The position numbers were made by a program, and so were the translations under genes. This document shows positions 1-17,751 of a stretch of 64,000 bases of DNA, piece by piece (position 1 is the first letter of the stretch; every line of letters begins with the position of its first letter). Origin of the DNA: a virus (Duplodnaviria; Caudoviricetes); IMG/VR virus record IMGVR_UViG_2881966637_000002, positions 1 through 64,000 of that record; one strand, given 5' to 3'. The notes beneath the pieces were generated by a model that did no database searches, was not told the DNA's origin, and saw only the letters and a program-made list of their open reading frames with translations.

Positions 1-450
1 TCAGGATATATATTTCACCTGCTTGCGGTTCTTGCCTTTTCCCCGGTAGCCGATGTGTACCCATTCGGGTTTGTCTTTAGTGCCATACTCCCACAGCAAC
101 TGGTCGAAATCCACCTGGCTTTTGACGTGCGCAAAGAGCGTTTTGTTGGTCAGTTCGCGACCGGCCCCGTCCATGTCAATGTCGATAGCGTTGCCATTTG
201 GGTGATCAGACGTGCTCGACCCACCCACCGCACTGTTCAGGGCCGGAGTCCGAAAAAAGCTGCTGACGGGCAGTTTGTAGCCAAAGTGGTCGCAGAGCGG
301 GGCGTACACGTTGTCGTATAACCGCTTCATGTTGTTATACTGCGCCTGGGTTGGTGTATTGTCTATGCCCAGCCGGATGGCAGTGGTGGACTTAATGGCT
401 TCGGCATACGTCAGCCACTTGCCAAAGTCGGGGTAGGTTTTTTTTGCCAT
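1..450 (-). CDS. Endolysin, peptidase M15 family (Zn D-Ala-D-Ala peptidase-like)
   Basis: Motifs SFFRTPALNSAVGGSSTSDHPNGNAIDID and FDQLLWEYG...WVHIGY are typical of M15_3 phage endolysins. TGA stop at 1-3, so the gene is complete. Confidence 0.9.
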   Translation of the reverse strand: MAKKTYPDFGKWLTYAEAIKSTTAIRLGIDNTPTQAQYNNMKRLYDNVYAPLCDHFGYKLPVSSFFRTPALNSAVGGSSTSDHPNGNAIDIDMDGAGRELTNKTLFAHVKSQVDFDQLLWEYGTKDKPEWVHIGYRGKGKNRKQVKYIS

Positions 451-456
451 AGCTGT

Positions 457-3400
457 TTAGCGGCCAATGGTGATGTAGGAGAAGCGGTAAGTCGTGCTCC
501 CGCTGGGTGCGGTGGTTGTTGCGACAGAAAAGCCGGTCGTGGATTCACTTGTCGTGAATGCGGGCAGCGAGGTGCCCTGCGCTCCAGACACAACGACGAT
601 GGGCGCATTGGTCACATAGGCCGTGGGAAATGTAAGCGTGGCCAACGTGCCCGCTCCCGGCGCAGAACCTGTGACGACAGTAATTATCCCAGCCGTAGCC
701 GTTCCTACGATTGATACGGTTGGCCCCGTACCGGCCCCGGCCCCAGCGGCTACCGTGGGCGCAGCTCCTGCGCCATAGACCGCACTGGTAGACAGCGAGC
801 CGGCGAGTTGTGCAATATCCCGCCCATTGTCCGTTTGCGTGCCAATCAAAACTCGGTTGGTGGGCGTTGTTGTCATAGTAATCACGCCCATATTGTACAG
901 GCGCGTGAACCCATGCGTCCAGCCTGAGAGATTCTTGGATGCCTGACCGATTGACAGCACCCCTGTTCCACCGCCCAGCGTGCCCGTGATATATCTCAGG
1001 CCGACCGTCGCATCGTTTGAACGGGCCGTGCCCAGTTTCAACTCAAAGCGGGTTTGAGCGGCATCTGTCGTATATAGGAATGTTTCGTTAGGATCAGACG
1101 ACTGAAACCAGTGTCCCGACGCCTGGCCCGCTGTAATGAATCGCACACCGATACCATCGGTGTGCGAGAACGATACCGTACCTGACAGCGTAGGGCTTAC
1201 CGCCTGCGCCATTTCCCGCCAGCCCGTGTTTCCTGTAACACCGGACCCTTTGTAGAAAAACCGACCCGTTCCGGCGGTGATGTCTCGGTAAATAGCTCCT
1301 ACGGGAGCGGCTATAACGCCTATAGGGCTTCCTGTTCCGGCGTAATCGTAACCAGCGAGGCTCAAGTCGGCCCATACGCCCGGTGTTCCCGCTGTGATAC
1401 AGACCCACCCACTGACCGCTCCGGGCGCGGGATTACTGTTCAGCACCCGGTCGCCCAGCCGCCACGTGCCGGTCGTCGGGGCCGATGTTCCATCATGGCT
1501 CCGCAGGGTCTGGCGCAACACGACGGATGGGCTGAGCTGGTAGGGCGTCTGCACAGCGGCATCAATTTCGTTGCCGTCTATAAACGTCTTACCGTCTATC
1601 TCATCGGTGTATATCCCGTACCGATAGTTCCCTCTAATGTGATTGCTGCGAAGCGACAGGTTTGTACACAGTGACTGGCCCACGAACGACAAGTACTGAC
1701 CAACCGCGCTGAACGCCCCAGAGCCCCTTGTGCCGGTGAACTGAAACGTATTCCTGTTAATATTCACATCGTCCAACGGCCCGCGACTGATATACCCTGT
1801 GGTGCTGACGACCGCCCCTCCTGATTGGTAGTGCGTGGCTGACGTGTAGTCGGCTGAGCGCAGGAAGTGGTTACCTTCGATATAGACTTGGTTGCCTTCC
1901 ACCACAATGGCCTGGATTGGGGTCATCACCGAGTCGCTGATAAACTGATTGTTGGTAATGAAAATCTTTCTGCTGAGGGCTGCCGACTTGACGCCAGGCG
2001 TCACATGCGCCCCGCGAAGCATGATGACCGATTCTGTGAATTCCAGGTTGACAAATTTGTTATTGGATATTGTCCAGTTCTCAATAACGTCGTTGTAAGT
2101 GGACTGGATAGCGGATGGGGGGTCGGCAGCATTCCAGCTACTCAGGCCCGTTCCGGTAACTTGGTTGCCCTGAATCAGCACGTCGCGGTTCACGAACGCA
2201 ACCCCGCCGTCAGCACCCGTCAGGGCAATGAATTTGGGATTGTTGGTAGAGATATTATTCAGGAACGATACCCCCCTGATTTTGGATGTCTCAAACGCGT
2301 AGGCACTTTGGTTGGTGATGACATTTTTGCTAACAACGATTCCTTGCGAGGTCGATATACCGATACCGCGTGTGCCTGTGTTAATCGTGTTTCCCGATAC
2401 GACACCCCGAGTGACACCGTGGTACTCGATGGGTATCGGTCCGGCCGCCCCGGCGCCTGCCCGACAATTAACGATTGTATTGTTAGTGACCTGACAGTCG
2501 AAATACACGTCGAACCGCAGGTCGTTAATATTCAAGTTGTCTTCCAATCCGATGATATTCCCCCCACAATCATCGAATTTATTATGGTCAACTAAAACAT
2601 CGCTGCGGCCTTTTGAGGTGCCGCGTACGCTGATCGCGTTCGTACCGGACAGGAACTTGCAAAACGTAATCTGTAACCCACTGAACGGTGCCGATGTCCA
2701 GTGATACACAAACGGGTTGATGCCGTTTTTAAAGTTTACGTGATCGATCACCAGACTATTCACACTAGTCGAATACGACTTAATGGCCGAGACGGGCGTG
2801 GTATTGAGTGATAGATCGAGCGTCAGGTTCTCGATCGTAATGGAATCCTGACTAGCGTTTAGCCAGCCCGTTACCTGGTCTGGCTGTTCGAGGTTGGGGC
2901 TTGACTGACCCACAACGCCAGGATGGAGTACGAGCGTCGTTTTGCCCGCTACCCCCCCGATGCGACACCCGCGCGGAATCGTAATCTGTCGGAAACAGAA
3001 ACGACCTTCGGGCACATTGAGCGACTTGACCGACGTTAGCGCGGAGACCAGCAGCGCGGTATTGTCGGCTCCGTCGCCCGCTACGGGTGCCCACCACTCA
3101 AAGCGGGCCGGGCCGCGAAACTGCCGCACCCAGACGCCCCCGCCTGATGCCGGAAAGACGCACCCGCCATCCGGGGTGCCGGATGGCATATAACAGAAAT
3201 TACCGCCCCGCACCCCGTCGCGTACGTGGACCGCCAGGCCCGAGCTACCCGTTGTAGCTGTTAAACTAGGGATGTCCGCGACATGGACCACACGCTGTAT
3301 TAATGCAGCCGGTACTGAGGACAAGACTTCGAGTTGGGACTGAACCAGGTTAAGGTCGTTGCGTAATGCAGGGTCGTTGGTTGCCGTACCGCTTACGGGT

Positions 3401-3477
3401 GGCCGAATAACTAGCTGCGCTAAGGTACTCGTACTAAGTAATGTTGCGTAGACCAAAAAAAGCCAAAGTCGAAGCAT
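457..3477 (-). CDS. Tailspike-like right-handed beta-helix (pectate-lyase-like) protein with N-terminal Sec signal peptide
   Basis: GADNTALL...NVPEGRF beta-helix start and many xxNNxI/xxGNxF repeats. Tailspike motifs APTTGTWRLGDRVLN...GWVC..AGTPG.W and GTGSPIGVIAAPVGAIY...K..G.TGNTGW. N-terminus MLRLWLFLVYATLLSTSTLA|Q. Confidence 0.8.
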   Translation of the reverse strand: MLRLWLFLVYATLLSTSTLAQLVIRPPVSGTATNDPALRNDLNLVQSQLEVLSSVPAALIQRVVHVADIPSLTATTGSSGLAVHVRDGVRGGNFCYMPSGTPDGGCVFPASGGGVWVRQFRGPARFEWWAPVAGDGADNTALLVSALTSVKSLNVPEGRFCFRQITIPRGCRIGGVAGKTTLVLHPGVVGQSSPNLEQPDQVTGWLNASQDSITIENLTLDLSLNTTPVSAIKSYSTSVNSLVIDHVNFKNGINPFVYHWTSAPFSGLQITFCKFLSGTNAISVRGTSKGRSDVLVDHNKFDDCGGNIIGLEDNLNINDLRFDVYFDCQVTNNTIVNCRAGAGAAGPIPIEYHGVTRGVVSGNTINTGTRGIGISTSQGIVVSKNVITNQSAYAFETSKIRGVSFLNNISTNNPKFIALTGADGGVAFVNRDVLIQGNQVTGTGLSSWNAADPPSAIQSTYNDVIENWTISNNKFVNLEFTESVIMLRGAHVTPGVKSAALSRKIFITNNQFISDSVMTPIQAIVVEGNQVYIEGNHFLRSADYTSATHYQSGGAVVSTTGYISRGPLDDVNINRNTFQFTGTRGSGAFSAVGQYLSFVGQSLCTNLSLRSNHIRGNYRYGIYTDEIDGKTFIDGNEIDAAVQTPYQLSPSVVLRQTLRSHDGTSAPTTGTWRLGDRVLNSNPAPGAVSGWVCITAGTPGVWADLSLAGYDYAGTGSPIGVIAAPVGAIYRDITAGTGRFFYKGSGVTGNTGWREMAQAVSPTLSGTVSFSHTDGIGVRFITAGQASGHWFQSSDPNETFLYTTDAAQTRFELKLGTARSNDATVGLRYITGTLGGGTGVLSIGQASKNLSGWTHGFTRLYNMGVITMTTTPTNRVLIGTQTDNGRDIAQLAGSLSTSAVYGAGAAPTVAAGAGAGTGPTVSIVGTATAGIITVVTGSAPGAGTLATLTFPTAYVTNAPIVVVSGAQGTSLPAFTTSESTTGFSVATTTAPSGSTTYRFSYITIGR

Positions 3478-3478
3478 G

Positions 3479-4051
3479 TTATTGACGTTTAAAGATTAGA
3501 ACTCGTACGGTCGTTCCGGTTGCGTTCACCACTAGACTGGACAGCGGGGTTAGTTTGTTGCTGGACAAATCAAGCTCGGTACTAAATAGCCGCTGTTCGC
3601 CGGGATTCAGCGTGTACACAAACCCACCATAGGTCAGTGTCGCCGTTTGCCCACCCAAGTTTTCCGTTATGTACTTGAAAGCCCCGGTCGCCGGCACGGT
3701 ATTACCGCTGGTGGTGTAATCCACCGTCGCGTTGAGTACCGAGCCAACCGTGGTAAAGTTGCCTATCGTGGTTCGCCAGCTATTGAGCGCGTCGGCATAG
3801 GTCAGGCCGTAGGGCTGGCCGTCGCGGTTCAAAAACGTGTCGTAGGTCGCGTAGCGCACCGGCTCACCCGACACCGTGAGTGTTGCGGTACCGGGGTAGA
3901 GTACGACGCTTACATCCCTGGCGTCGCGGAACCGGACAAACGTACCCTGGGCGTCGCCAATCGCGTATTGAGAACCAACCGGATAGATCCGGAACTGGGC
4001 CAAGGCTCCCTGTGTACCCAGCAGGAGCAGAATGAGAATCTTGATTTGCAT
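3479..4051 (-). CDS. Secreted beta-rich hypothetical protein
   Basis: Signal peptide MQIKILILLLLGTQGALA|Q. Start overlaps the upstream stop. Confidence 0.7.
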   Translation of the reverse strand: MQIKILILLLLGTQGALAQFRIYPVGSQYAIGDAQGTFVRFRDARDVSVVLYPGTATLTVSGEPVRYATYDTFLNRDGQPYGLTYADALNSWRTTIGNFTTVGSVLNATVDYTTSGNTVPATGAFKYITENLGGQTATLTYGGFVYTLNPGEQRLFSTELDLSSNKLTPLSSLVVNATGTTVRVLIFKRQ

Positions 4052-4941
4052 CAGTACGTTTGTTTAGCCATCATTAACGAATCAAAATGGTACGTTGAGT
4101 CCAGGTACGATGTGGGCCGAACGGGCGGCAGGCTGCTGGGTAGCTTAAACTCCTTCCGCGCCGGGGGCTGTATCTTGGGAATAGGGGTTTGCAGCCGCTC
4201 ACGGACGCTTTTTTCTATCGCGTTCAACGCCCGCATCGTGGCCTTCGTCCGGCTCAGCTCCTGGCTGTTGCGGGCTTTGTTCGCCTGCTCCAGTTGCCGC
4301 AGCACGAGCTGCATTTCCTGTTTCTGCACCAGTAGCTGCTCCAGAAACAAACTGTCCTGGTGGCGTTTCAACGCCAGAGCAGCCAGTTTCGCCGTGCTGT
4401 CCTGCACCACGGCCTGCCGGGTCGCGGCTATCGAAATGGTTTGTTTCGTTTCAATCTTGTTGACGTTGCTGTACAGTACGCCGGTCGCAAAAATCAGGGC
4501 GATTACACCCAGCACCCACTTCTGCCACCGCTCCATTTGCGCCGTGAATAGCGCAACTTCCCGCCAGGGAATGACCTGGTTCTCGACCGATAACACTTGC
4601 TCAATCGTGGTGTCGTACTGAGTCCGTAGCTGATATAAGTACCGCAGGTACAGACTGGCCCGGCTCCAGACCGTCCAGGCCCAAGCCGTGTACAGAATCG
4701 GCCGGTTCACGTCGGCCCAGCTCGGATGCCGGGTCGTGGCCGTGATCACGTCGATGTATATCTGCATGACGACGCCCAGCAGCAGCAGCACGAACGCTCC
4801 CCTGTACACACGCCCTTTGTGCATGGAGAAGAAAAAGTTGATCACCAGGCCGGGGGCAGCAACCGCCAGGGCCAGGGTTTCCCACCAGTCGAAAATGACC
4901 TGCGCCAGTTCGGGGAAAGCGTTATACGTTGTTGGTTCCAT
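4051..4941 (-). CDS. Multi-TM membrane protein with C-terminal coiled coil (lysis-cassette associated)
   Basis: About 4 hydrophobic segments followed by a Q/L-rich coiled coil. Probable ATG at 4941 (MEPTT); the ORF track extends to 4998. Confidence 0.6.
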   Translation of the reverse strand: MEPTTYNAFPELAQVIFDWWETLALAVAAPGLVINFFFSMHKGRVYRGAFVLLLLGVVMQIYIDVITATTRHPSWADVNRPILYTAWAWTVWSRASLYLRYLYQLRTQYDTTIEQVLSVENQVIPWREVALFTAQMERWQKWVLGVIALIFATGVLYSNVNKIETKQTISIAATRQAVVQDSTAKLAALALKRHQDSLFLEQLLVQKQEMQLVLRQLEQANKARNSQELSRTKATMRALNAIEKSVRERLQTPIPKIQPPARKEFKLPSSLPPVRPTSYLDSTYHFDSLMMAKQTY

Positions 4942-5317
4942 CGTTACCGGGTTTACTAATATTGCGCCACTTGCTATACGCCTGGGCCAATGTGTCAAAC
5001 AGGTTCAGTGCCTGATCCGGGTTTCCCTTTATCCTGGTCAGAATAGCCGCGACCACGCTCATAATAGCCCAGCCTGCGAAGCTGACAATGGCATAGACCG
5101 ATTCAACCGGCCAGTCTGGCATCCACTTGCGCTGCACGGTGGCAGCGGCATAGTGGCTAACAAAAAAGCTGACGGCGATCTGCGAGAAACCACCCCGCCA
5201 GCCGGTTGGCGGGAAAAAAATCAGGGCGATAGACCCCCCGATGAGTTTGGCGAAAAACTGCCCGACTTCGGGTGGCATCCCGGCAAACAAGCCGAAAAAG
5301 TATTGCCAGAAACTCAT
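4922..5317 (-). CDS. Putative holin
   Basis: 131 aa, 2-3 TM segments, polar C-terminus, between the spanin-like pair and the endolysin. Confidence 0.6.
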   Translation of the reverse strand: MSFWQYFFGLFAGMPPEVGQFFAKLIGGSIALIFFPPTGWRGGFSQIAVSFFVSHYAAATVQRKWMPDWPVESVYAIVSFAGWAIMSVVAAILTRIKGNPDQALNLFDTLAQAYSKWRNISKPGNDGTNNV

Positions 5318-5342
5318 AGGGTTGGTTGATGGGGTATTGCGC

Positions 5343-5666
5343 TCAATGCGCCGAATAGCTTTCGACTCGTTTCAAGACCTTTTCCACTTTCCGTCGCTTG
5401 CACCAGCCCTTCATCGCGCTCCTGACGTCGGTGACGAACGAGTCGAAATAAGCCTGGCGCGTGACCAGCGAGTCGTAGCGGGGTCTGATCCGGCTCAACT
5501 CAGCGAGTTGCCGGTAGATTTCTTCCTCGCGCTGCCGGGGCGTTAGCGTTGTGGCGGTAGGCGCGGTTGACTGAGAGTAAACTGTCAATGGCATTGTGCA
5601 GCACAGCACTATCCAGACGAGTAGCGGCCAGCGAGTCGGCCAGTGAGTTTTTTTTCTCGGTTTCAT
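5343..5666 (-). CDS. o-spanin-like (Rz1-position) exported protein
   Basis: Starts inside the upstream gene in the +1 frame (ATG 5666). Basic N-region plus hydrophobic core. Weak lipobox VLCC or SPI site VYS|Q. Confidence 0.5.
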   Translation of the reverse strand: MKPRKKTHWPTRWPLLVWIVLCCTMPLTVYSQSTAPTATTLTPRQREEEIYRQLAELSRIRPRYDSLVTRQAYFDSFVTDVRSAMKGWCKRRKVEKVLKRVESYSAH

Positions 5667-5925
5667 GGTTGGCTTCAACTTTAGTAGTGGCGGTTCGGAT
5701 CGTCTCGAACTGGGTCTGTGACAGAGCCAGTAGCGAGTCGTGCCGGGGTTGCAGGTAGTCCAGTTGATTCTGCTTGCGGCCGCTGACGTAGAGCGACAGA
5801 ATCAGCCCCACCAGCAGCAGCAGCACCAGAATAAACGGGTTGCGGTATACATACAGAAAGCCGTCTCGCAGGACTGCGCCCGCTTTGGTGACAATAGGTT
5901 TTAGAAAGGCGATAAACATACGCAA
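5500..5925 (-). CDS. i-spanin-like (Rz-position) protein
   Basis: Single N-terminal TM (FILVLLLLVGLILSLYV) plus helical periplasmic region. Overlaps the downstream gene in Rz/Rz1 fashion. Confidence 0.55.
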   Translation of the reverse strand: MRMFIAFLKPIVTKAGAVLRDGFLYVYRNPFILVLLLLVGLILSLYVSGRKQNQLDYLQPRHDSLLALSQTQFETIRTATTKVEANHETEKKNSLADSLAATRLDSAVLHNAIDSLLSVNRAYRHNANAPAARGRNLPATR

Positions 5926-5944
5926 TATGGTTTAAATATTGTTA

Positions 5945-6427
5945 TTAACTTATTTCGAGCACGGCTTCTTTGGTCTGGATGGACGTGCTGGTGGACAGCG
6001 ACACGAACTGAGCCGTTACCCGCAGCGTCTGGGCCGTTGTGGTATCCACCGTCCAGTCCGCGTCGGCCGTAATGCAACTGGTGTTGTACTGACCAACGAC
6101 GCTGACGTACTGAGCACTCATGCTGTTCACGTTGCTGATCCGCACATCGAGTACCAGCGGTTTGCTACCACTGGCCAGCAGGGCTACGGCCGTGAACACG
6201 GTTAAGCTACTGCTACCCAGATACACCTTTATCGTGACGGCCGGGGGCAACAGACCCGTGGTTAGCCGACCCACGTAATGCAGGGCCAGCGTTTTCTCCA
6301 GGCCCAACTTGCCGGCCGGGATGGAAGCCGAGAAAAGATCGGTTTCAGCCGTTGAGTTGCTGATGGCCGAGACAACATCCACACTGGACATGGACATGCC
6401 TCGGCTGGTTTCTCTGCGATTTGGCAT
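5945..6427 (-). CDS. Beta-rich tail-fibre-associated hypothetical protein
   Basis: S/T/V-rich 160 aa, coupled to the upstream tailspike gene. Confidence 0.5.
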   Translation of the reverse strand: MPNRRETSRGMSMSSVDVVSAISNSTAETDLFSASIPAGKLGLEKTLALHYVGRLTTGLLPPAVTIKVYLGSSSLTVFTAVALLASGSKPLVLDVRISNVNSMSAQYVSVVGQYNTSCITADADWTVDTTTAQTLRVTAQFVSLSTSTSIQTKEAVLEIS

Positions 6428-8577
6428 TAGATAATCGTTAAGGTACCTCTGTTGGCGACAATAGAAAACTCGTTAGCGGCAATCTTCTCCACTACCACGG
6501 TGTCGTACCGGGACTGTGACTGAACGTAGCCACCGGTCCCCGTCGTGGTGTCGGACGCGCCGTGAATGACCTGACCTGCGTTCTGCGCCAGCCGCCAGCC
6601 GCCCGTTCCCATGCCCCGGATAGATACCTGTTCCCCAACCTGAATAGCAGAGTCAGCGGGTAGTGTTATGGTAATTAGCGACGAGCTGTTGGCTACGTAT
6701 TTTGTGTTGGGGCTTCCCGTGGCTGAGCTTGTTAAAACAACAACAGGCGTCACGACAGCGACCTTATTTCCTTTGGTTTTCAGACTATCCTGCCCGGCCT
6801 CCAAGATTGGCAACGTGGTAGAGGAGTCGTAGATTAAGGTACCTGTGGGTGTAGTAGAGGTAAACGTTAGGGCTGAGACAGGTGTTGCCTGTGTGGTTTT
6901 TACGTAAAAAACCCCAACCTCCATAAAGCTGTCAACAACAATATAAAGTGTTGTGGATGCGTCAGCGTTTCTGTAAGCGACCACCTTTCCGGGAGACGAA
7001 TTGTCGCCCTGACAAACCGCGCTGGCTATAAACGCATCGCGTTGACCTACGTTAAGGGTCAACACCTTTTTGGCGTTACTCGAATAGCCCCCCAGTGACA
7101 CGATCAACAAACTGCCATCATAGCTGGCCCCAGACGACCCTGGTAGCGAGAGGATCGGGGCGTACTGCACACCAGAAGCAGCCGTTACGGCGGACAGCTT
7201 TAGGTCAGACGTACCTAACGCGCCAATATTGGTTCTGGCCTGCGCCTTCTGTCCGCTTGATAAGGACTGACTGGCTCCGTAGGAAACCAGATTTGTGCCG
7301 TCACCGTTGGGCAAAATGTCGGGCAACGCTTGTCGTTTCTGCACATTGCCAAACACCTTATGGTTTGTAACCGAAGCGGTTAAGTTATGTGCTCGGGTAT
7401 AAGGCAAATTGAGACTGGGGAATGAATCAATAATGTTGTCGGTGGACAAGAAGCCGTTTACGTTGTTGGCGTAGATAGCATCCCCTTTTGTTTTAAGTAT
7501 GTTGTCGGTTATAAAAACGTTTTCAAGCGTACCGCCATCGCCGTTAAGGGCAATGTTTACGTTGGTTGGATTAGTCGAATAATCAACGATCTGGTTTTGC
7601 GAAATCAGCACGTCATAAAACTGACTACCGGCCCCCATTTGTAAAATGATTCCGTAAGACGTGTAAGACTCAATACTGTTTTGCTGAATAAACAAATCAA
7701 CGGTTTGCGCCCCAGGAGCTAAACTCATATTGAAGGCAACGCCATTTTCCACGCCGTCAAGGGGCAGGAATTTATTCTTGTACACCATTAATCCACCCGA
7801 TGACTTATAAAAAATAGACGCCAGGCTGTTGCCACGGAACTTGTTCTTTTCTATAATGCTATCCCCGCCGTCCGGGTGTGGCTGATTTTCCACCCACACA
7901 CCGTACTGCCCAGCCAGAAACCGATTGTTTTTGATGGTTTGAAACGCGGCATTGTGCAGGTGAATGCTTTGCTGGCAGTTCAGAAAAAAGCAGTTGTCGA
8001 TAATTGAGTAGCTGTTGCCGCCCGTCACGTACAAGCCTCCTGTGTTGAGCCCGTACGTGGGTGGCGACACCATAAAGACATCGCGCAGACAGGTCTGATT
8101 CAGGGTGTCGATCACAAAACAGTACGCGTCGTCCTCGGCTAGTGCAAAGATGCTTCGATTGCTGTCACCAAAAATAGTCAGACTGTTATTGATCAGTACA
8201 TTGGCAACCCGTATGTCTGGTCCACTTGGCACGTATAGGCTTCGGCCCGTGGCGATACAGTAATTGACCGCTTTCTGAACCTGGCTTGTCGCGTTTTGGC
8301 CTGACGGCACTTTCACATAATCGCGCAGATTTACGGCACGATCTACACGGGCTCGCCAGGCCCCGCCCCCTTTGCCTGGCGCAGCTACGGTCAATACGCC
8401 ATCTGCTCCACTACCCGTTGGGTCGTAGTCAAATGAACGCCCCGCAGCTATAGTAGCCCGGTTTTTTAAGCCCTGATAAGCCTCCAGTGCTGTTTCATCC
8501 AGAATAAAATCCTGCTTCCCTTTAGCTACTTTAGCCAGCTCCCGAAAACCAGCGGACACTCGTGTTTCAAGGCTCAT
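6427..8577 (-). CDS. Tailspike / receptor-binding protein with beta-helix depolymerase-like domain
   Basis: VNLRDY...NATSQVQKAVN...SLYVPSG beta-helix start, NN/GN ladder repeats, QKAQARTNIGA motif and C-terminal ITLPA...GGWRLAQNAGQ fibre domain. More AT-rich than neighbours. Confidence 0.8.
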   Translation of the reverse strand: MSLETRVSAGFRELAKVAKGKQDFILDETALEAYQGLKNRATIAAGRSFDYDPTGSGADGVLTVAAPGKGGGAWRARVDRAVNLRDYVKVPSGQNATSQVQKAVNYCIATGRSLYVPSGPDIRVANVLINNSLTIFGDSNRSIFALAEDDAYCFVIDTLNQTCLRDVFMVSPPTYGLNTGGLYVTGGNSYSIIDNCFFLNCQQSIHLHNAAFQTIKNNRFLAGQYGVWVENQPHPDGGDSIIEKNKFRGNSLASIFYKSSGGLMVYKNKFLPLDGVENGVAFNMSLAPGAQTVDLFIQQNSIESYTSYGIILQMGAGSQFYDVLISQNQIVDYSTNPTNVNIALNGDGGTLENVFITDNILKTKGDAIYANNVNGFLSTDNIIDSFPSLNLPYTRAHNLTASVTNHKVFGNVQKRQALPDILPNGDGTNLVSYGASQSLSSGQKAQARTNIGALGTSDLKLSAVTAASGVQYAPILSLPGSSGASYDGSLLIVSLGGYSSNAKKVLTLNVGQRDAFIASAVCQGDNSSPGKVVAYRNADASTTLYIVVDSFMEVGVFYVKTTQATPVSALTFTSTTPTGTLIYDSSTTLPILEAGQDSLKTKGNKVAVVTPVVVLTSSATGSPNTKYVANSSSLITITLPADSAIQVGEQVSIRGMGTGGWRLAQNAGQVIHGASDTTTGTGGYVQSQSRYDTVVVEKIAANEFSIVANRGTLTII

Positions 8578-9239
8578 TACGCTGCGAGTTCAGTGTTGAT
8601 AATAGCGACAAAATCTGTATCGGGGTTGCCGATTTCCGTACTCCCGTACTTGGCGTTCCAAGTTGCTTTTTCTAAAGCGGTTGTGTACAGGTTGACAACA
8701 CCCTGCGGTACGGCATCCGACGAACCGGGGCTGGGTGAAATCTCGGTGTACGAACTGCCGCCCCACCGCCACGCTTTGTTGGTGTCCAGCGCGACGTAAA
8801 TCTTACTGTTGGAGCCGGTAGCCGGAAATTCAGCCAGGCTGTTACGCTCTATCACTTCGTCCACGAACGACGGAAGCTGGGCGGACGGCACCTTGCCGGT
8901 GCTGTCCAGCGACGCGACGCCGTTAATCGCGCCTTTCTGCGCCTGAATCTGGTTGGCAACCGCATCGGCAAAGTCGATGATGGTACTGGCGGACTGCGTA
9001 CCGGTGTGGGTGGACCGGTTGCGGTACTGCTCAATTTTACTGCTGGAATACGTCGAGCTGCTGGACGACGCGTTGTCGTTGATGCCCACGGCATTGGCTA
9101 TCGACTGCTTGACCTCGTTGATCGCAGCGACCAGATTGGTTTTGTTGGTCGTGGCCAGGTCGCTCAACTTACCGGTCCTTGCGATAATCTCTTGGGCAAT
9201 GCGTCGAAACGCGGCACTTAGTCGTTGTTCTAAAGTCAT
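8577..9239 (-). CDS. Tail fibre adaptor protein
   Basis: Common fibre motifs LATTNKTNLVAAINEV, HTGTQSASTI and GVASLDSTGKVPSAQLPSFVDEV...FPATG..KIYVA.DTNK.WRWGGS.Y. Confidence 0.75.
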   Translation of the reverse strand: MTLEQRLSAAFRRIAQEIIARTGKLSDLATTNKTNLVAAINEVKQSIANAVGINDNASSSSSTYSSSKIEQYRNRSTHTGTQSASTIIDFADAVANQIQAQKGAINGVASLDSTGKVPSAQLPSFVDEVIERNSLAEFPATGSNSKIYVALDTNKAWRWGGSSYTEISPSPGSSDAVPQGVVNLYTTALEKATWNAKYGSTEIGNPDTDFVAIINTELAA

Positions 9240-9258
9240 GGCGGTTGTTGTGTAATAC

Positions 9259-9582
9259 TTACTTGCTCAATTCGTTTTCAAAAATTTCGATGTAGTCAAC
9301 GTCTTGTATCGGGTTGTTGCTGATCGTGCCCAGCGACGTCCAGACACTGGCGGTGGTGACCCGGTATTGCAACTCGTCTCCCTGCCGGCGCAGCTCGATA
9401 CCCGAGAGATTCGGGGCTTGATACGACGGGTAGCCGGTGACAGGGGGCGGGCTGGTCGGGCCGCAGCCGCAGGAGCTGGGTGGGGTGAGGTGAACGGTGT
9501 CACCCAACCCCTCTATCCCTAGCCCTTGTAACTGCTCGGGCGACAACTGCCCTAGTAACTCATACGGATTGTAGCAACTCAT
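9259..9582 (-). CDS. Small structural/adaptor protein
   Basis: 107 aa with SCGCG, Pro linker, IELRRQGDELQYR..W..L motif and C-terminal DVDYIEIFENEL. Confidence 0.55.
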   Translation of the reverse strand: MSCYNPYELLGQLSPEQLQGLGIEGLGDTVHLTPPSSCGCGPTSPPPVTGYPSYQAPNLSGIELRRQGDELQYRVTTASVWTSLGTISNNPIQDVDYIEIFENELSK

Positions 9583-12500
9583 GCGTTCTGGTTGGGGTTA
9601 ATGCCGGCCGGTGGCGCGACGTTAGCTGTATTGATCCACTCGACCCGCCAAAGCTCGCCAGCCGGAGCCGGGTCGTCCTGCCGCTCGGTGCCGAAGTCGA
9701 TGTAGCGTTGGAAGCTGACTTTGTTGACCACGCCCCGCCACTCACCGTTACCCGACAGCGGAACCTCAATCGTGCGCATCTGACCGTCGCTGTTGACCGG
9801 GAACTCGACAAAAATGGGCAGGCCGTAGGGCGACATGTCGTGCCGCCAGAACAGGAGCCTGAACTTGTTCAGTGGACCGGCGTACGCCATGCGGATAAAC
9901 ACGCTGCCGATACTCGACGCCGGCAAGCTCAGCCGCTGGGACGAGATACTGGCCTGCTTAAGCGTAGGTACAATGGTCCAGCCCGATTGCGGGAAAGGTA
10001 CCCCGCCGTCCGTTGCTTTGTTGCGAATCCAGCGGCCTCGGTCCAGGCTATAGGCGAAGTTCGTGGCCAGTGTACGCGGCCAGTTCTGCTCCATTGCGTA
10101 CTGACGCATTTCATCGACGTGCCCGGTCAGGATATGGTACTCGTTGTACAGCACCTGGTTCCAGTCGATGTGAAGCTGCGGTTGCCACGCGACGTACGGG
10201 CTGGCTTCGGCAAACTCGCCGTCACCGCAGTCCGGGCACTGGCGTTTACGCGTCACCTCGTACAAACCTGGACCGGCGACGCCCACGCCCCGGTTGTTGT
10301 TGTTGACCCTGGCAATCCAGGGCTCAGTGATCGCAAACGGGATCTGCTCACTCTGCGAGTTGGTCCTTGTAATCGGCTGGTTGGCGTAGGGCTGACCGCC
10401 TTCGTAATAGACCGCGTGCTGAAATTCTTCGTTGGCGTAGACGCACGGCATTTCCTGGCCGTACGCGTCGTAGATGCCCTTGTCGTCGGTCCGGTTGTTG
10501 ATCATGCGCTCATACACCCGACAGGCTGCTTTGCCCGGCACCAGCACGAACCAGCGTTCGAGAATAACGTCCGTCACCTCGTTGCGCACCGGCCAGTTGA
10601 CCAGTTGCGATTTGATGTAGAGCCGGTTCTCGTCCCAGGCCACGGCCAGAATAGGCGACGGGTTCCAGAACGCGTCACCGGCTGTAATCGGGTCGTTCCC
10701 CGTACCCCCGCCTTCGGGGTCGAGTTTACCCAGTGGCGTTGCCCAGAAGCTGAACTCGGCGTTGGGGTTGGGGCTGGTGCGGCCACCCCGGTAATACGCC
10801 GACTGCAACTGACGACCGCCGTTGTCAGCGTTGTTCACAATGTTTTTGGTTGGCTCCGGCCCTTTGAGGTCGTAGACCTCGCAGACCGCACCCCCGCTCC
10901 GCTCCCAGAACCCGACCATGATAAAGCCGTTGCTGATCCGGATCTTGCGGCCGACGATCCCACCAATCCGCTCGTAAGGCCGGGTGTCGGTGATCGGCCA
11001 CACGTTCTGGTTCGTGGTTAAAATCGGGTAGTCAAAATTGGTTGTGACCGGGGGCGGTGCGTAGGTCGGTGTCCCGGTGCCCGTGCCGCTGTTGCCGCCC
11101 GTCGAACCCGTACCCGTTCCGGTACTCGTCGCGGTAGGTGTCGGCGTACCCGTGCCGCTGGTCACGCTCATTGCCGCCCAGAGCCGATCTGCTATCGTCT
11201 GATGGACGGGATCAGTGGGGTGGTTGGCGTAGCCATCGGTAGACCCCGGTATGCCCGAGAGGTCGATCACCGGCAAACTGAGATCGTTGGCCACGCTCCG
11301 GATCATGTTACTGACCTGTACCTGCGCTGGCGTCAGAGACTCCCAGAGCGAGGTGGTGAGGAACACAGCGGCATTGGGCCGCGACTGGCGCAGCTTGTTG
11401 ATAAACGCTTTGTACCAGCCCGTGAAGTCCTGGCTGAGATTGGTAACGTTTTCCGCAAGCCGAATTACGATGGCGTCGGCTCCGAAAGCCGTAGCCGGGT
11501 TATAGCGTTCCAGCCCACCCTGTAACTGCCAGTAGTTGCCCTCAAAGTAACTACCGTCGTTAATGGTCAGGGGCGGGAAATCGCCTAACTGACACACCTG
11601 TACATTCGGGTTTTTGGACCGCAGGTAGTTGGTTAGAATGTGTACGTAATCCTTGTTAGCCGCGCTGGCGTCCATGCCCCAGGCTTTGGTACCCCCACCC
11701 CAGTCCGGTATCGCCGGATGGTTCGTGATGGAGTTGCCCACGATCAGTACTTTGTTGTACACGCCGTTACCTACCGGCAACGTGCCGGTGGCCATGTCGG
11801 GGTTGAACGCACCGAAGTACGTCCATTCAAACGCTTGCCCAGGGGTCACGAATCCATTCTCCCGGTCGTTGACCAGCTCGAAGCGTGAAATGATCCCGGA
11901 CCAGTTCGGGTTCGAGCGCATGTTGATTTCGTACGTATGGAACTGATTGTCGGGAATCAGGTTGAACCACACGATCTGGGTAGCGTACTGCCGGATGCCC
12001 AGTGGGTACTGCGTGAGACTGCCCGCGTTGTTGGGATCGAAGCCGGACGCTTTCTGCCCTACTTTCAAAAATTCAATGCCCATCTTCGTGGGGCCACCCG
12101 CGTATTTGGTACGAATGAACAGCGTGTCGAAGTCAGCCGCCCGCCACGACCCAAACGGGCTGTGCAGGGCCGTAGTCGAGGCATGGGTAACGGTGTTGCC
12201 GGCGATGGTTTCCGTTTTGCCCACATAGGTCGGTTTCCAGTTGTCGGTGGTGAAGGGTTCTTTCTGGTCCTGAACCCCGTCCAGCCCCACCCAACCGGCT
12301 CTCGATTTTACGAACGAGAAGTCGGGCAGCGGTGTGCGGGGCAGGGCGTAGGCTGCGGCCCTGATCTCCGACTCCGAACCATAGATATAGTCGTAACTGT
12401 AGTAAAAGGTCTGGTTCGGATCCAGGTGCGACATGGGCCGACCGCCTATGTACATGAACCGGTCCGAGTTCTCGGCACTCGCTTCGTTCACATCCAGGTT

Positions 12501-13889
12501 GGTAAAGTTGACGTTGGCGTTGTACATATCCACCGACACCATACCCAGCATTTTCCCTTCCGGCAGCTCGACAGCGGCCCAGGGCTCGGACAGCGGGAAT
12601 GAACTCATCGTCCAGCCAACGCCGTTGGTGGACGTGGCGGGCGCATTGGTAAATGGCTGTTGTCCGTTGTAGAATTTGGCAACGGTCGCCGGCCAGATCA
12701 TGCTGAAGGGCGTTTCCTGTTCTCTGGCCTCGTACAGCGTCGCGTCGCGCAGCGAGCCGGCTTCCACCGTGTCACGAAAATGGGTCAGCCTCAGTTTGAC
12801 CCGGATGCGGTTGCCGTCGATCTTCACCCACCGTTCCACGAACAGCGGCATGAGTAACGTGTTGTTGTGCGGCCAGGAAATGAATCGGGTCTTGGTATAC
12901 AGCCAGCCGGTGCTGGTGATACCTTTGGCCACGACCGGACCGGACTGGTTGTTTACCGAACCGGCCAATGGGTTGTAGCCGATAGACGACCAGGTGTTAC
13001 CCTGGTCAGCGGCAAAATTGAGTGGGCCGGCGTAAGGGCAAGCTCCTTCCAGCCGGCCCTGATCGCGCATGTTGATCGTGGACAACCACTGGCCGTTGAC
13101 ACGGCGGTATATCTGCATGGCCGAACCAAAGCCTTCCCGCAGCTCGATCCGCAGATCACCGGACTCCTGACGCAGTATGCCGCGCACCGGAATGCCGTAG
13201 GGCTGCATGACCTGGGTGCTGTTCTCGGTCCAGTTGCCGTTTACCGTTTCGTACACAAAGGCTGGCGAGCCCGACCCGGTACCCGTCGCCGTCGCGGTAG
13301 CCGTGCCGGTGCCACTTGTGCCCGTAGATGTGCCAGCCGTAGCGTTGCCACTGCCCGGTATGTACGGCCCGAAGATCGTGGTCAGGTTCGCCCGGCGCGG
13401 AGCGAGTAGCAGCGTCGCGGTTTCGACCGGAGCGTTGTTAACGAACCGGGCAATGGTGATCTCCAGCGTTTCGGTACCGATCCCGGAACCAGCCTCACCC
13501 GTCGCCCGGTAGCTCCACTCCTGCTTGAAGTCCCCCCTGGATCTAGGACCGGGCGGGTAGTAGCTGTTGGGACTGAGCACCTGCCCACCCGACGAGCGCA
13601 TGAGCAGGTTGATGTTGTCCTGCCGGCGTATTTTGACGCGGATGTCCACCGTGCCTTCGGGCGCGATTTCCAGATCCATCGACCGGGCACTGGTATAGGT
13701 CATTTGCAACCCTTTCAGCCAGGGGAACGGGCTGGGGATAAATGACGAGGTACTGACCCCGGCGTTGTTAGCCGATTTACGGGCTGCGGCCTGCTCCTTA
13801 CTTTCGTTCGGGAGCAGGGTGATTACGACGTTGGTTGGATCATCCACCGATGCGTCGGCATTCGTATTAAGCCACTGGTAACGTGCCAT
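9579..13889 (-). CDS. Large modular protein: two homologous beta-sandwich domains flanking an SGNH/GDSL hydrolase, joined by Thr/Gly linkers
   Basis: SGNH blocks VLIVGNSITNH..WGMDAS..DYVH, RLAEN and HPTD (~11170-11750). Internal paralogous domains (ERW...R.D...Y.A..QE.P ; EPW.A) at ~11800-13150 and ~9630-10940. Confidence 0.8.
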   Translation of the reverse strand: MARYQWLNTNADASVDDPTNVVITLLPNESKEQAAARKSANNAGVSTSSFIPSPFPWLKGLQMTYTSARSMDLEIAPEGTVDIRVKIRRQDNINLLMRSSGGQVLSPNSYYPPGPRSRGDFKQEWSYRATGEAGSGIGTETLEITIARFVNNAPVETATLLLAPRRANLTTIFGPYIPGSGNATAGTSTGTSGTGTATATATGTGSGSPAFVYETVNGNWTENSTQVMQPYGIPVRGILRQESGDLRIELREGFGSAMQIYRRVNGQWLSTINMRDQGRLEGACPYAGPLNFAADQGNTWSSIGYNPLAGSVNNQSGPVVAKGITSTGWLYTKTRFISWPHNNTLLMPLFVERWVKIDGNRIRVKLRLTHFRDTVEAGSLRDATLYEAREQETPFSMIWPATVAKFYNGQQPFTNAPATSTNGVGWTMSSFPLSEPWAAVELPEGKMLGMVSVDMYNANVNFTNLDVNEASAENSDRFMYIGGRPMSHLDPNQTFYYSYDYIYGSESEIRAAAYALPRTPLPDFSFVKSRAGWVGLDGVQDQKEPFTTDNWKPTYVGKTETIAGNTVTHASTTALHSPFGSWRAADFDTLFIRTKYAGGPTKMGIEFLKVGQKASGFDPNNAGSLTQYPLGIRQYATQIVWFNLIPDNQFHTYEINMRSNPNWSGIISRFELVNDRENGFVTPGQAFEWTYFGAFNPDMATGTLPVGNGVYNKVLIVGNSITNHPAIPDWGGGTKAWGMDASAANKDYVHILTNYLRSKNPNVQVCQLGDFPPLTINDGSYFEGNYWQLQGGLERYNPATAFGADAIVIRLAENVTNLSQDFTGWYKAFINKLRQSRPNAAVFLTTSLWESLTPAQVQVSNMIRSVANDLSLPVIDLSGIPGSTDGYANHPTDPVHQTIADRLWAAMSVTSGTGTPTPTATSTGTGTGSTGGNSGTGTGTPTYAPPPVTTNFDYPILTTNQNVWPITDTRPYERIGGIVGRKIRISNGFIMVGFWERSGGAVCEVYDLKGPEPTKNIVNNADNGGRQLQSAYYRGGRTSPNPNAEFSFWATPLGKLDPEGGGTGNDPITAGDAFWNPSPILAVAWDENRLYIKSQLVNWPVRNEVTDVILERWFVLVPGKAACRVYERMINNRTDDKGIYDAYGQEMPCVYANEEFQHAVYYEGGQPYANQPITRTNSQSEQIPFAITEPWIARVNNNNRGVGVAGPGLYEVTRKRQCPDCGDGEFAEASPYVAWQPQLHIDWNQVLYNEYHILTGHVDEMRQYAMEQNWPRTLATNFAYSLDRGRWIRNKATDGGVPFPQSGWTIVPTLKQASISSQRLSLPASSIGSVFIRMAYAGPLNKFRLLFWRHDMSPYGLPIFVEFPVNSDGQMRTIEVPLSGNGEWRGVVNKVSFQRYIDFGTERQDDPAPAGELWRVEWINTANVAPPAGINPNQNA

Positions 13890-13901
13890 AGTAGCGATTG
13901 G

Positions 13902-16900
13902 TTACGGGTAGAGGGCGACAAAGCCCGATGTCGAGTCTGTTGGAATATTCAGGGTGAGCGTGAGCAGGTTAGGGTTGCCCGCGTTGCCGTTCGCCAGCGT
14001 AGTGATGCCGAACTTGTACGAGTTGCCGGCCAGGGTGCCGGCGTTGGCCGTGTCGATGAACGCGCGACGAATGTTATCCGTGGCCGGCGATCCGTTCTGG
14101 TACTTGCGCTCAAACAGCGCGTACCCGGTTGTCGGTGTAGTGGCCGACGATAACCAGAACCGCCAAGACATCGGCTGGTCGGGGTAGCTGTCGATCATCT
14201 GGATTTCCAGGAAGTCTTTCACCGACCCCACACCCCGCACGTACCGGTACTGCACTTTGGTAATCGTGTTGGGCTCTACCGTTCCGGTACCCGTACCCGT
14301 ACCTGTTCCGGTAGGCGTTGCGGCCAGTACCGTAATCGGCTTAGAGTAGCCGTTGCCGTTTTCGGACACCAGCACGGATAAGCTCTGCGACGACGGCGGG
14401 GAGCCAACATTGCTGGGCAGGGTCAGCAAACCGGTCGCCGAATCAATGCTGTTGCCGTACAGCGTCGAGCTGATCGCGAACGTATGCGCTCCGGTAAACG
14501 GCCGGGTACTGCCATCACTCAGCACTTCGACCAGCGTGTAATCCGCTGTCGTTGGCCGGGTGAGTGTGTCTGGGCCCTCAATCCGTTTGCCAACCACCGT
14601 AGGAGCCTGCGTAGCGGTACCCGTACCGGTGGCCGTAGCGGTGCCAGCCGAATACGTGAAGTTTTCGGTATCGGTACAGGTCGAAGCACTGCCGGCCGAG
14701 CGGGCCGCGACCATCCGCAGCACGTAGGTTTGCCCATTGGCAATCGGAGCCGCGTTCATATCAATCACCAGTTTGGTGCCTTGCAGCGGAACGACGCCAC
14801 TTAGACTGTTGAGTTCGGCCCCGTCAAGGGTTAAGACCTGCCAGCGGAAATCCGTTTGCGTGCCGATATTCGATAGCTCAACCTCAAAGGTTTTGCCATC
14901 AACGCGGGTGATCGCACCAATGCCGAACGTACAAGCCCCGGTAGCGGTGGAGGTCGGTGTCGCGGTCGGCGTCGGCGTTCCAGACGTTGGACCCGCATAG
15001 GTGAAGCCTTCGGTGTCGCTACAGGTCGTGGTATCGCTGCTGGTGCGGTCCGCGACGATCCGCAGCACGTAGGCCGTGCCCTGCGACATTGGGGCCGCGT
15101 TCATATCAATGATCAACTTCGTGCCTTGCAGCGTGACCGGTCCCTGCACCGTGGTAATCGCGTTACCGCCCGTGTCCAAAACCTGCCAGCGGAAGTTGGT
15201 TTGTGTGCCGACGTTGGTCAGGCCCACGTCGTAGGTCTTGCCGTCAATCCGGGTAATGGAGCCAATGCCGAACGTACAGCCGCTGGGCGGTGGCGTGGTG
15301 GCCGTCGCCGTCGCGGTAGGTGTTGGGTTCACGGCACCGGAGGTCAATATCTGCGATTGGGCTCCCGAGATACCCGTCAGGTTCACCGGTACACTGGTCA
15401 CCTTGCCTGTGGCGTCTTTTACCCGCAGCGTGAAGTTGCCGTTGTTGATGTCGGCTCCACCCTGCACGAAGCCAGGGTGCCAGTTATACCGCCTATTGAA
15501 ATTGGTGGCCGATCCCTGAATCGTGAAGTTGCCGGTTTCGGTACGCACGTAACCGCTTGGGCTGGGGTTGCCCTGGTTGTCGAGCGGCACCAGTTGCACG
15601 TCGTACGCCTGGCTGTCATTGACGAACAGATAGGCCACGAAGTCTTTGGCTCCCCGGTCCGAGCGGTAGGCGATGCGGGCAATGTTGCCCCAGTCCTGAG
15701 CGGTAGGGCTCTGGCTGGGGGTGGGCGTCGCGGTGCCGGTTCCGGTCGAACCTGTACCTGTACCTGTACCCGTGCCGGTCGAAACGCCCGGTGTCGGGAT
15801 GTCCATGACCTCGCCAATCGGGAAGTAGGGCTTGTTGGTGGTGGTCGGCGCAATAGTCGCTGTATTGGTGCCGGTGCCGGTACCCGGTGTCAGCGTCGTG
15901 TCGTACACAACGCCCTGGCCCGGCAGCGGGAAACTCATCGTCAGCGTGTCGCTGAGCGTACCGTTGGTGAACTGCACATTGAACAAGCCGCGTCCCGAGA
16001 ACTGGAACACGCCTTGCCGCGTCAGGCCGTCCGGCAGATTGGCCGTGTCGTTCACCGGCCCGGTCACCGCCTGCCCCGTGGAACACGGTGCCGGAGTGAT
16101 GAACACACCGGTTACCACCGCATTGGTCAGCACCTGCAACAAGTTGAGGTTGGGCTGGCTGATGCGCGATTTGAAATTCTGAAGCATGAAGCTACCCACG
16201 CCCTGAGCGGCCAGCGTCGTAACCACGAAGTCGTAGAACGCCGGCTGTCCGTTCGGCACCCGCGCCGTTAATCGCAGGGTAATGGCTCCCGGCGTTGTGG
16301 TCCTGAGTGACAGTTGCAGATACCGAACTAAGGTCGGGTTGCCCTGGGCATCTTCGTCCGTGCTCTCGCTCAGCAGGAGCGATCCCTGCTCCGAGGTCAA
16401 GGCCGTACCGATGGGCGGGGCGAACGATAACTCAAAGACAGTCGGCCGGCCGCTGAACACCTGGTCGATGGGCAGGAAGTAGGTTACGGCCTCGGTGTTG
16501 GCCAGCTTGCGTATAGGGCCGGGGTTACAAAGCAGCGATACGCCGTTGCTTGTTCCGGTAGCGGTCGATGTGCCGGTGCCCGTGCCACCCGTTCCCGTAG
16601 CCGTACCGGTGCCGGTATTGGTACCCGTACCCCCGGTGCCGGTCGCAGTACTCGTGCCGGTGGATGTGCTGGTCGAGGTACCGGTAGCGGTTGATGTGCC
16701 GGTAGCCGTTCCGGAGCCCCCGGTGCCGGTGCCACTTCCGGTTGACCCATTGGGTACGTCGATGCCGGCGTTATACCGCACGCAGTCTTTGTCCTCAACA
16801 AAGCCGTTGGCTAACGCCTGCTCCGGCGAGAAGCAGTCGGCCCGGTTTCCCGACCAGCCGGCCGGGGCTATGTAGCACTTCCCGTCGTTCAGCTTTACAG

Positions 16901-16910
16901 TGATTGCCAT
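13902..16910 (-). CDS. Thr/Gly-linker-rich multidomain (Ig-like) virion appendage protein
   Basis: Long GTGTGT/TPTPTAT linkers between beta-rich domains. Contains a tandem duplicated 94-aa domain. Confidence 0.7.
14652..15278 (-). repeat. Tandem duplicated 94-aa Cys-bracketed domain (14997-15278 and 14652-14933)
   Basis: [15 protein letters not shown]...FRWQVL...[14 protein letters not shown]...YVLR...CSDTEGFTY versus [15 protein letters not shown]...FRWQVL...[14 protein letters not shown]...YVLR...CTDTENFTY. Confidence 0.95.
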
Positions 16911-16925
16911 GTTATTAATATGTTT

Positions 16926-17540: not shown

Positions 17541-17751
17541 ATAAGCTTAGGAAAGTATGGGTGTCACGCAAAGCATCGGTATCCCAGAACACCACCGCCT
17601 TATCCAGCATGAGCAAAAACTGCAAGTGCTGGTCAGCGGCATGCGTTGGCTTGCCCTGCCGCATCGTCTGGGCCAGGATTGCCGAGGCCCGTTTGATGCT
17701 GGGGGCGAGCCGCTGCTGCACGTTGCCGGGGGCGTTGATCGTTAGTTCCAT
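17527..17751 (-). CDS. Small hypothetical protein
   Basis: 74 aa with short overlaps to both neighbours in the operon. Confidence 0.55.
   Translation of the reverse strand: MELTINAPGNVQQRLAPSIKRASAILAQTMRQGKPTHAADQHLQFLLMLDKAVVFWDTDALRDTHTFLSLFDHV

Follow-up and report, generated by a model that had tools for sequence, protein, structure and literature searches.

A tailspike-like protein and its small partner with predicted Sec leaders in the lysis cassette of a Spirosoma prophage

Tailed-phage particles are built in the cytoplasm, and classical tailspikes, among them those of Pam1, Sf6, HK620, CBA120 (TSP2/3) and phi29 (gp12), carry a cytoplasmic N-terminal virion-binding domain and no signal peptide. 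In this study, we describe a prophage locus from a Spirosoma isolate genome, contained in a stretch of 64,000 nucleotides (the window), where a 1006-amino-acid (aa) protein with the same beta-helix core as those tailspikes (structure-comparison Z scores of 25-30) and a 190-aa partner encoded directly before it both begin with leaders that would take them through the Sec pathway to signal peptidase I (SPase I), with cleavage in front of a glutamine. The two genes stand between a holin-like gene and a gene for three transmembrane segments on one side and the endolysin gene on the other. We found no paper in the open-access literature in which Sec leaders on tailspike-like proteins of phages are treated in their own right.

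Gln at +1 is typical of SPase I substrates in Bacteroidota (the Q-rule), and leaders of this kind do have precedents in phages of this phylum. The cultured Cellulophaga podovirus phi18:3 (NC_021794, annotation of Holmfeldt et al. 2013) encodes, like the window, consecutive large leader-bearing proteins, the three products gp085, gp086 and gp087, whose leaders end GYS↓Q, VSA↓Q and LNA↓Q (arrow, cleavage site); they are annotated as virion/tail proteins by tandem mass spectrometry (MS/MS), among 13 MS-supported virion proteins. Their genes lie directly upstream of the lysis genes and outside the holin-endolysin pair, whereas the window genes lie inside it, and gp085-087 share no homology beyond the leader with the window proteins or the 190-aa family. 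Separately, the mature N-terminus of gp086 (L035:34544-36901), VIKIKQPNPQQITIAD, loosely resembles the post-leader motif of the 190-aa family, RIYRxGDQ(I/V)xxAD, at an hhalign probability of 6%. Phages of Porphyromonas gingivalis carry five genes of unknown function predicted to encode SPase I substrates with Gln at +1, which, unlike those of the window, are not described as tailspike-like, partner-paired or lysis-linked (Matrishin et al. 2023, PMC10367356). Elsewhere, signal peptides have merely been counted in two rumen Bacteroides phages (PMC5723332), and 5% of soil prophage carbohydrate-active enzymes carry one (PMC13507307).

Exported proteins comparable in function or fold are known outside this phylum. 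XepA, from the lytic cassette of the Bacillus subtilis prophage PBSX, is a late protein that is exported beyond the membrane and absent from mature particles; it resembles the window pair in the position of its gene, within a lysis cassette that directly follows the tail genes, and in having a jelly-roll C-domain, as the 190-aa partner does, but it differs in its Gram-positive host and in forming a pentameric dumbbell rather than a beta-helix (PMC6834076). The match of the 190-aa jelly-roll to XepA/YomS-type structures is at background level (6i56, Z 6.7; 6i5o, Z 6.6), and the 190-aa protein has no match among Protein Data Bank sequences. WceF of Pantoea stewartii is an exported, trimeric beta-helix of tailspike fold that cuts the producer's own exopolysaccharide (EPS), although it is chromosomal, belongs to an EPS biosynthesis cluster, uses a Tat rather than a Sec leader and is not phage-borne (PMC7949094). 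The MAT fibres of Bdellovibrio, which we liken by description, are trimers resembling phage tail fibres, exported by a diderm cell and put to use outside its cytoplasm, but they are surface proteins of a cellular predator and not phage late genes (Caulton et al. 2024, PMC10769870).

An earlier sequence-only reading had put the locus forward as a candidate for an undescribed system, a claim that holds only in part given the phi18:3 virion proteins, the P. gingivalis Q-rule leaders and XepA. What the locus adds is a conserved partner family, placement inside a lysis cassette and swaps between leader-bearing and leaderless forms within one genome.

Leaders, gene start and fold

The two leader-bearing open reading frames (ORFs) and the signal-less 716-aa tailspike of the same prophage were all recovered where the sequence-only reading had placed them (Table 1). 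The leader of the 1006-aa protein consists of a basic residue (R3), the core LWLFLVYATLL and small residues (T..A) at -3/-1, with Gln +1 at Q21; that of the 190-aa protein has K4, the core ILILLLLG, A..A at -3/-1 and Gln +1 at Q19. Leader calls were made by reading the sequence and with our own leader-plus-Gln heuristic, which 612 of 5776 ORFs of at least 100 aa in the whole genome pass (10.6%). Among the greedily selected ORFs of the window it marks only the 1006-aa protein, and a separate run marks the 190-aa protein as (18, Q).

Conservation gives these calls their weight. A profile of the 190-aa family built from nine relatives (alignment A1) and searched in 1.84 billion proteins returned 97 representatives (clusters at 50% identity), of which 83 passed the heuristic in strict form. 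In each of the 60 representatives that are complete at the N-terminus, a hydrophobic core leads into a Gln at 13-24 residues, and in 48 of them Ala precedes it; set against the 10.6% of the genome at large, the leader is no chance feature. The only invariant columns of A1 are M1, A18, Q19, T84 and T114. Leader-bearing relatives of the 1006-aa protein are likewise present in other Spirosomataceae prophages, and those at loci L031-L033, as well as the paralogue P0002 introduced below, have a leader plus Q. The leader is thus kept in homologues of both proteins, and the export proposed from the window alone gains from the comparison.

Other interpretations of these N-termini were rejected. A lipoprotein processed by signal peptidase II was ruled out, as Cys is absent from the first 40 residues of both proteins and there is no lipobox. 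Cargo of the type IX secretion system (T9SS) was ruled out, since no NCBIfam C-terminal sorting domain of the TIGR04183/TIGR04131 type was found at E<=0.01 in the two window proteins and seven relatives; bearing on the same test, the C-terminus of the 1006-aa protein also occurs on a signal-less paralogue, P0001. Signal-anchor-release (SAR) lysis proteins have a weakly hydrophobic, Gly/Ala/Ser-rich N-terminal transmembrane (TM) segment without a cleavage site, and such an anchor was ruled out by the Leu/Ile/Phe-rich cores (mean Kyte-Doolittle 2.4-3.0) followed by an A-x-A-type site.

As the leader and the A↓Q site are conserved in the family, export is well supported, and we consider it highly probable that both proteins are Sec/SPase I substrates exported from the cytoplasm. 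The periplasm is the likely destination, because neither a T9SS C-terminal domain nor a lipobox is present. The Bacteroidota O-glycosylation sequon D-[ST]-[AILVMT] shows no excess in the 1006-aa protein (2 observed, 3.6 expected), does not occur in the 190-aa protein and is not in excess in most relatives. As a side observation, it is strongly enriched in two membrane proteins of the cluster, the 315-aa three-TM protein (5 observed against 0.5 expected) and the 141-aa i-spanin-like protein (4 against 0.4), with 0 of 2000 shuffles reaching the observed count in either case.

The N-terminus of the 1006-aa protein depends on the choice of start codon, on which public gene calls disagree: one gives 1006 aa and another 910 aa, starting at Met97, which drops the leader and part of a conserved domain. 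Residues 58-96 share 44% identity with P0002 and are conserved in relatives; because these residues lie upstream of Met97, we take the long form starting at Met1 as correct. Between codon 1 and codon 97 the frame has no other ATG, and the start ATG lies 1 nt past the upstream stop. A downstream true start, which the sequence-only reading had allowed for, is therefore not borne out.

By its AlphaFold2 (AF2) model, the 1006-aa protein is a right-handed beta-helix nearest in fold to phage tailspikes. The model is confident only at approximately residues 130-690, with predicted local distance difference test (pLDDT) values mostly of 70-90 across the core (residues 122-674), whose best match is the cyanophage Pam1 tailspike (7eea; Z 30.1, root-mean-square deviation 3.0 over 452 residues), followed at Z 25-30 by alginate epimerases/lyases, CBA120, Sf6, phi29 gp12 and the Vibrio polysaccharide (VPS) lyase RbmB. 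At the sequence level, residues 267-431 gave a Pfam Beta_helix match (PF13229, E 4.7e-10) and residues 663-706 a match to a tail-fibre PHROG motif (phrog_23059, E 1.4e-10), the latter also present in SPO1 gp18.1-type fibres. A tblastn search against cultured phages matched only a 40-residue fibre motif, and a near-length homologue search returned only the protein itself and one 26%-identical fragment. The N-terminus has no virion-binding anchor domain and instead consists of the leader and a linker of approximately 37 residues; the docking helix of the neighbouring leaderless fibre chain is absent.

Table 1. Features of the leader-bearing pair and of neighbouring genes, in window coordinates
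Feature	Position	Strand	Basis
Endolysin, Peptidase_M15_3 (E 6.9e-15), phrog_894, 149 aa, leaderless	1-450	-	Domain and PHROG matches
Gene for 1006-aa leader-bearing tailspike-like protein	457-3477	-	ORF, PF13229, phrog_23059, Pam1 fold match
C-terminal module, ~residues 808-1006; 74% DNA identity to signal-less fibre P0001	459-1056	-	DNA comparison
Right-handed beta-helix core, residues 122-674	1456-3114	-	AF2 and structure alignment
Conserved N-terminal module, residues 58-121, motif QRVVHVADI..SLTAT, common to leader-bearing relatives	3115-3306	-	Comparison
Predicted 1006-aa signal peptide, residues 1-20, cleavage TLA↓Q	3418-3477	-	Sequence reading and heuristic (20, Q)
Gene for 190-aa leader-bearing partner, N-domain and C-terminal jelly-roll	3479-4051	-	ORF, alignment, model
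Predicted 190-aa signal peptide, residues 1-18, cleavage ALA↓Q	3998-4051	-	A18 and Q19 invariant in alignment A1
315-aa protein, three TM segments and coiled coil; stop overlaps 190-aa gene start	4051-4998	-	ORF, topology
Holin-like 131-aa membrane protein	4922-5317	-	Weak phrog_2359 holin match, E 5.6e-4
Overlapping spanin-like pair	5343-5925	-	Topology and gene overlap only
111-aa spanin-like protein, leader ending VYS↓Q (judged by eye)	5343-5678	-	Topology
141-aa i-spanin-like protein, N-terminal TM	5500-5925	-	Topology
Signal-less 716-aa beta-helix tailspike	6427-8577	-	ORF, domain match
Signal-less 1436-aa SGNH-bearing appendage protein	9579-13889	-	ORF; leader-bearing homologue C21:551943-556601

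The lysis cassette and related loci

The window corresponds to G000:C1:88105-152104 of a genome with 7.37 Mb in 27 contigs. Relatives of the 190-aa protein are named from Spirosoma validum, Fibrella forsythiae and Fibrella aestuarina, on which basis the host is assigned to Spirosoma (Spirosomataceae, Bacteroidota), a soil bacterium; the window region is a prophage. Most of its genes have no PHROG match, which points to a poorly known type of phage. The large terminase gene (18942-21047; phrog_6681, E 8.6e-29) is followed by the fibre genes and then by the lysis cluster, and the host gene katG lies approximately 3.3 kb past the endolysin. On the minus strand the genes run in the order 1436-aa appendage protein, 107-aa protein, 220-aa fibre, 716-aa leaderless beta-helix spike, 160-aa protein, spanin-like 141- and 111-aa proteins, holin-like 131-aa protein, 315-aa three-TM protein, 190-aa protein, 1006-aa protein and 149-aa endolysin. 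The junctions, read from the sequence, are TGATG between the 315- and 190-aa genes, TAA-C-ATG between the 190- and 1006-aa genes and TAA-ACAGCT-ATG, with a 6-nt spacer, between the 1006-aa gene and the endolysin; on this packing the four genes are co-transcribed, in one operon with the holin-like gene, and probably translationally coupled. Placement in a lysis cassette, another claim of the sequence-only reading, is thus firm with respect to the endolysin and the tight junctions, whereas the holin is a weak match and the spanins are assigned from topology and overlap. The 315-aa protein used as a query had no match among 300 sampled genomes of the family. Just beyond the window, 31 nt 3' of the endolysin, lies a 434-aa ORF (L005:16665-17969, minus strand) with a weak DUF3431 match (E 5.6e-7); it is the last one ahead of the host genes, which begin with a small leader-bearing protein and katG, and may be the prophage's terminal accessory gene.

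The 190-aa family was matched in 7 of the 300 sampled Spirosomataceae genomes and, the window's own genome excepted, in none of 400 genomes sampled across the phylum, a patchy spread that fits a mobile element. A near-length homologue search with the 190-aa query returned only itself, tblastn against cultured phages gave no match and a scan of IMG/VR using the family motif found no relative. The N-domain of the family is often fused into proteins of 400-1160 aa, and the jelly-roll/cupin match of the C-domain is generic (best Z 8.4, at background level), with weak leads in BFVD and Atlas.

In all five of the nearest loci, a second leader-bearing gene begins a few bases after the 190-like gene, and Spirosoma G056 has two fused forms of the family, each followed in turn by a leader-bearing gene. 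The domains on these leader-bearing partners include Beta_helix, K1-lyase_N, GDSL esterase, GTA_spike_fiber, fn3 and FlgD_ig, while the large partners gave no BLAST matches to one another and have no shared docking N-terminus. Leader-bearing clusters adjoin endolysins at L024 (GH19), L028 and L029 (M15), L032 (GH108) and L033 (glucosaminidase), where a leader-bearing beta-helix protein comes after the endolysin and a small TM protein; at L027 the cassette stands behind the major tail protein, and at L028 and L029 between portal-like and scaffold-like genes. With such different neighbours, its position varies between prophages.

Several of these loci hold further features. L030 of Spirosoma G056 (3761-17206) has five successive large leader-bearing genes (736, 708, 1089, 467 and 1047 aa), two of which carry the 190-family N-domain fused to longer bodies. 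L026 (Spirosoma G261, 3957-14615) and L027 (Spirosoma validum G233, 8067-17980) are compact phage-like modules with a terminase, a major head protein, connectors and a 167-aa major-tail-like protein leading directly into a leader-bearing 209-aa gene and its partner, with no tape-measure gene seen within the fetched stretches. In Fibrella, patatin-like phospholipase genes (PF01734) adjoin the leader-bearing clusters at L024 (3629-4672, plus strand; E 2e-24) and L025 (3544-4641, minus strand; E 4.7e-20), and might encode membrane-attacking lysis or entry enzymes.

Two other prophages of the same Spirosoma genome, C21a and C21b, carry related bodies in both forms. P0001 of C21a (1407 aa) is leaderless and consists of a 210-residue N-terminal region and collagen-like G-X-Y repeats, followed by a beta-helix and a C-terminus that share 39% and 59% identity with those of the 1006-aa protein, the last 200 residues being nearly identical. 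P0002 of C21b (1188 aa) is 83% identical to P0001 over 997 residues but has a leader ending GFA↓Q. Its gene directly follows that of a 1552-aa protein (C21:551943-556601, minus strand) with a leader ending GSA↓Q, which in turn shares 53% identity with the window's signal-less 1436-aa protein over 711 residues. From these two pairs, we conclude that the same appendage bodies occur with and without leaders through swaps of N-terminal modules. The leader-bearing pair of C21b lies among tail genes, adjoining the tape-measure gene, and three prophages (C21b, G111 and G006) have two post-leader modules in common, encoded in the same order. Upstream in C21b, at approximately 562517-564315, is a lysis cluster, assigned by eye, of three small TM proteins and a 189-aa muramidase-like protein.

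Fate of the exported pair

The sequence-only reading had offered three uses for the exported protein: digestion of capsule or EPS for release, exclusion of superinfecting phages by receptor removal, and addition to virions at lysis. We favour, at a probability of roughly 0.4, a reading where the pair forms a non-virion enzyme or adhesin complex that binds or cuts polysaccharide and is released at lysis. Late in infection, both proteins would be translocated by Sec and cleaved before Gln, and the new N-terminal Gln would probably be cyclised to pyroglutamate, as in the Q-rule proteins of the host. Folding would take place in the periplasm, where the large protein would probably form a trimer that has the conserved 190-aa protein as its adaptor or carrier, and both would be retained until the envelope is broken by the flanking lysis genes. 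The target of the complex would then be the capsule, EPS or receptor layer of the cell that made it, so that progeny are freed from the matrix and kept from sticking to debris. Its enzymatic activity, substrate and localisation are putative, drawn from sequence and model.

This non-virion fate is favoured because a complete set of fibres and a spike, all leaderless, is present in the phage already, because a leader and short linker stand in place of an anchor-plus-collagen N-terminus of the P0001 type, and because the cassette lies inside the lysis cassette and is mobile in position like an accessory module. XepA provides a precedent (PMC6834076), and the mutually unrelated leader-bearing partners carry depolymerase-type domains. 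Leader conservation, the tight packing with the lysis genes, the missing T9SS domain and the similar arrangement at L033 count towards it as well. Several observations weigh on the other side. In phi18:3, three leader-plus-Q proteins encoded directly upstream of the lysis genes are recorded as virion or tail proteins by MS/MS; in C21b, both large appendage proteins bear leaders amid tail genes beside the tape-measure gene; the combination of conserved post-leader modules and distal parts that vary is how receptor-binding proteins attached to virions are usually laid out; and an 83%-identical body that exists with or without a leader fits a single final destination.

These same observations argue for the strongest alternative, that the 1006-aa protein is a virion fibre exported and folded in the periplasm, which joins the completed particles only once the compartments have been mixed by lysis. 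In that case the 190-aa protein would serve as a tail adaptor, and the phage would carry both leaderless and leader-routed receptor-binding proteins. The conserved and tightly coupled order of a small gene upstream of a large one, the fixed gene order of the two post-leader modules in three prophages and the C-terminal module held in common with the signal-less fibre P0001 fit this view as well. Against it, late attachment would be inefficient through dilution at lysis, and we know of no tailed phage that assembles fibres via the periplasm. The leaderless fibre set is full and has docking peptides, which the leader-bearing proteins lack; the genes stand inside a lysis cassette and shift their genome position in relatives. 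The MS/MS detection in phi18:3 may reflect sticky contaminants, and the likeness to gp085-087 ends with the leader. We therefore prefer the non-virion release complex and regard late attachment to particles as the less probable but serious possibility, the two standing close.

Two further explanations are much less likely. The pair might also be expressed from the resident prophage as a lysogenic-conversion or exclusion factor that trims or masks surface polysaccharide from the periplasm and so blocks adsorption of related phages. Two other prophages of the same genome have tail fibres with a matching body, which therefore probably recognises the host's own surface, the cassette is mobile in the manner of morons and WceF is a bacterial precedent for an exported tailspike-like enzyme that trims EPS (PMC7949094), but the genes overlap or stand 1-6 nt from their late lysis neighbours, too close for an obvious promoter or terminator of the pair's own, the scan for these having used a sigma-70 model that is uninformative for Bacteroidota; we judge this role improbable. 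Least likely of all, and hardly to be expected, is that the leader goes unused and the protein is an ordinary cytoplasmic tail fibre, either through a start at Met97 or through some other role of the hydrophobic N-terminus. The clear tail-fibre homology of the body and the one public annotation that begins at Met97 speak for it, against which stand the gene-start evidence given above, the Leu-rich core with a cleavage site, unlike SAR anchors, and the retention of the leader and A↓Q throughout the relatives of the large protein and across approximately 60 distantly related members of the partner family.

Implications for phages of Bacteroidota

The kinds of protein met here, phage exported proteins and tailspike depolymerases, are known, and a new assembly route would follow only if the pair does end up on particles. 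It is possible, though we lean away from it, that in tailed phages of Bacteroidota some of the receptor-binding fibres, or all of them, pass through Sec, with periplasmic folding, a pyroglutamate cap and pick-up at lysis. Were this true, it would be a route of assembly without a known example among tailed phages, and Spirosoma phages would switch the same fibre body between a cytoplasmic and a periplasmic route by swapping an N-terminal module. The locus is a good test case, as it comes from an isolate genome, has a leaderless spike as an internal control and has sister prophages whose bodies occur with and without leaders. A conserved leader on tailspike-like proteins implies either a separate exported enzyme that acts on the surface of the host at release or a component of the particle that completes its maturation beyond the cytoplasm and is attached as the cell lyses. 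In both cases, the annotation, expression and engineering of receptor-binding proteins and depolymerases from Bacteroidota phages would change, and recombinant constructs should start at the Gln at +1.

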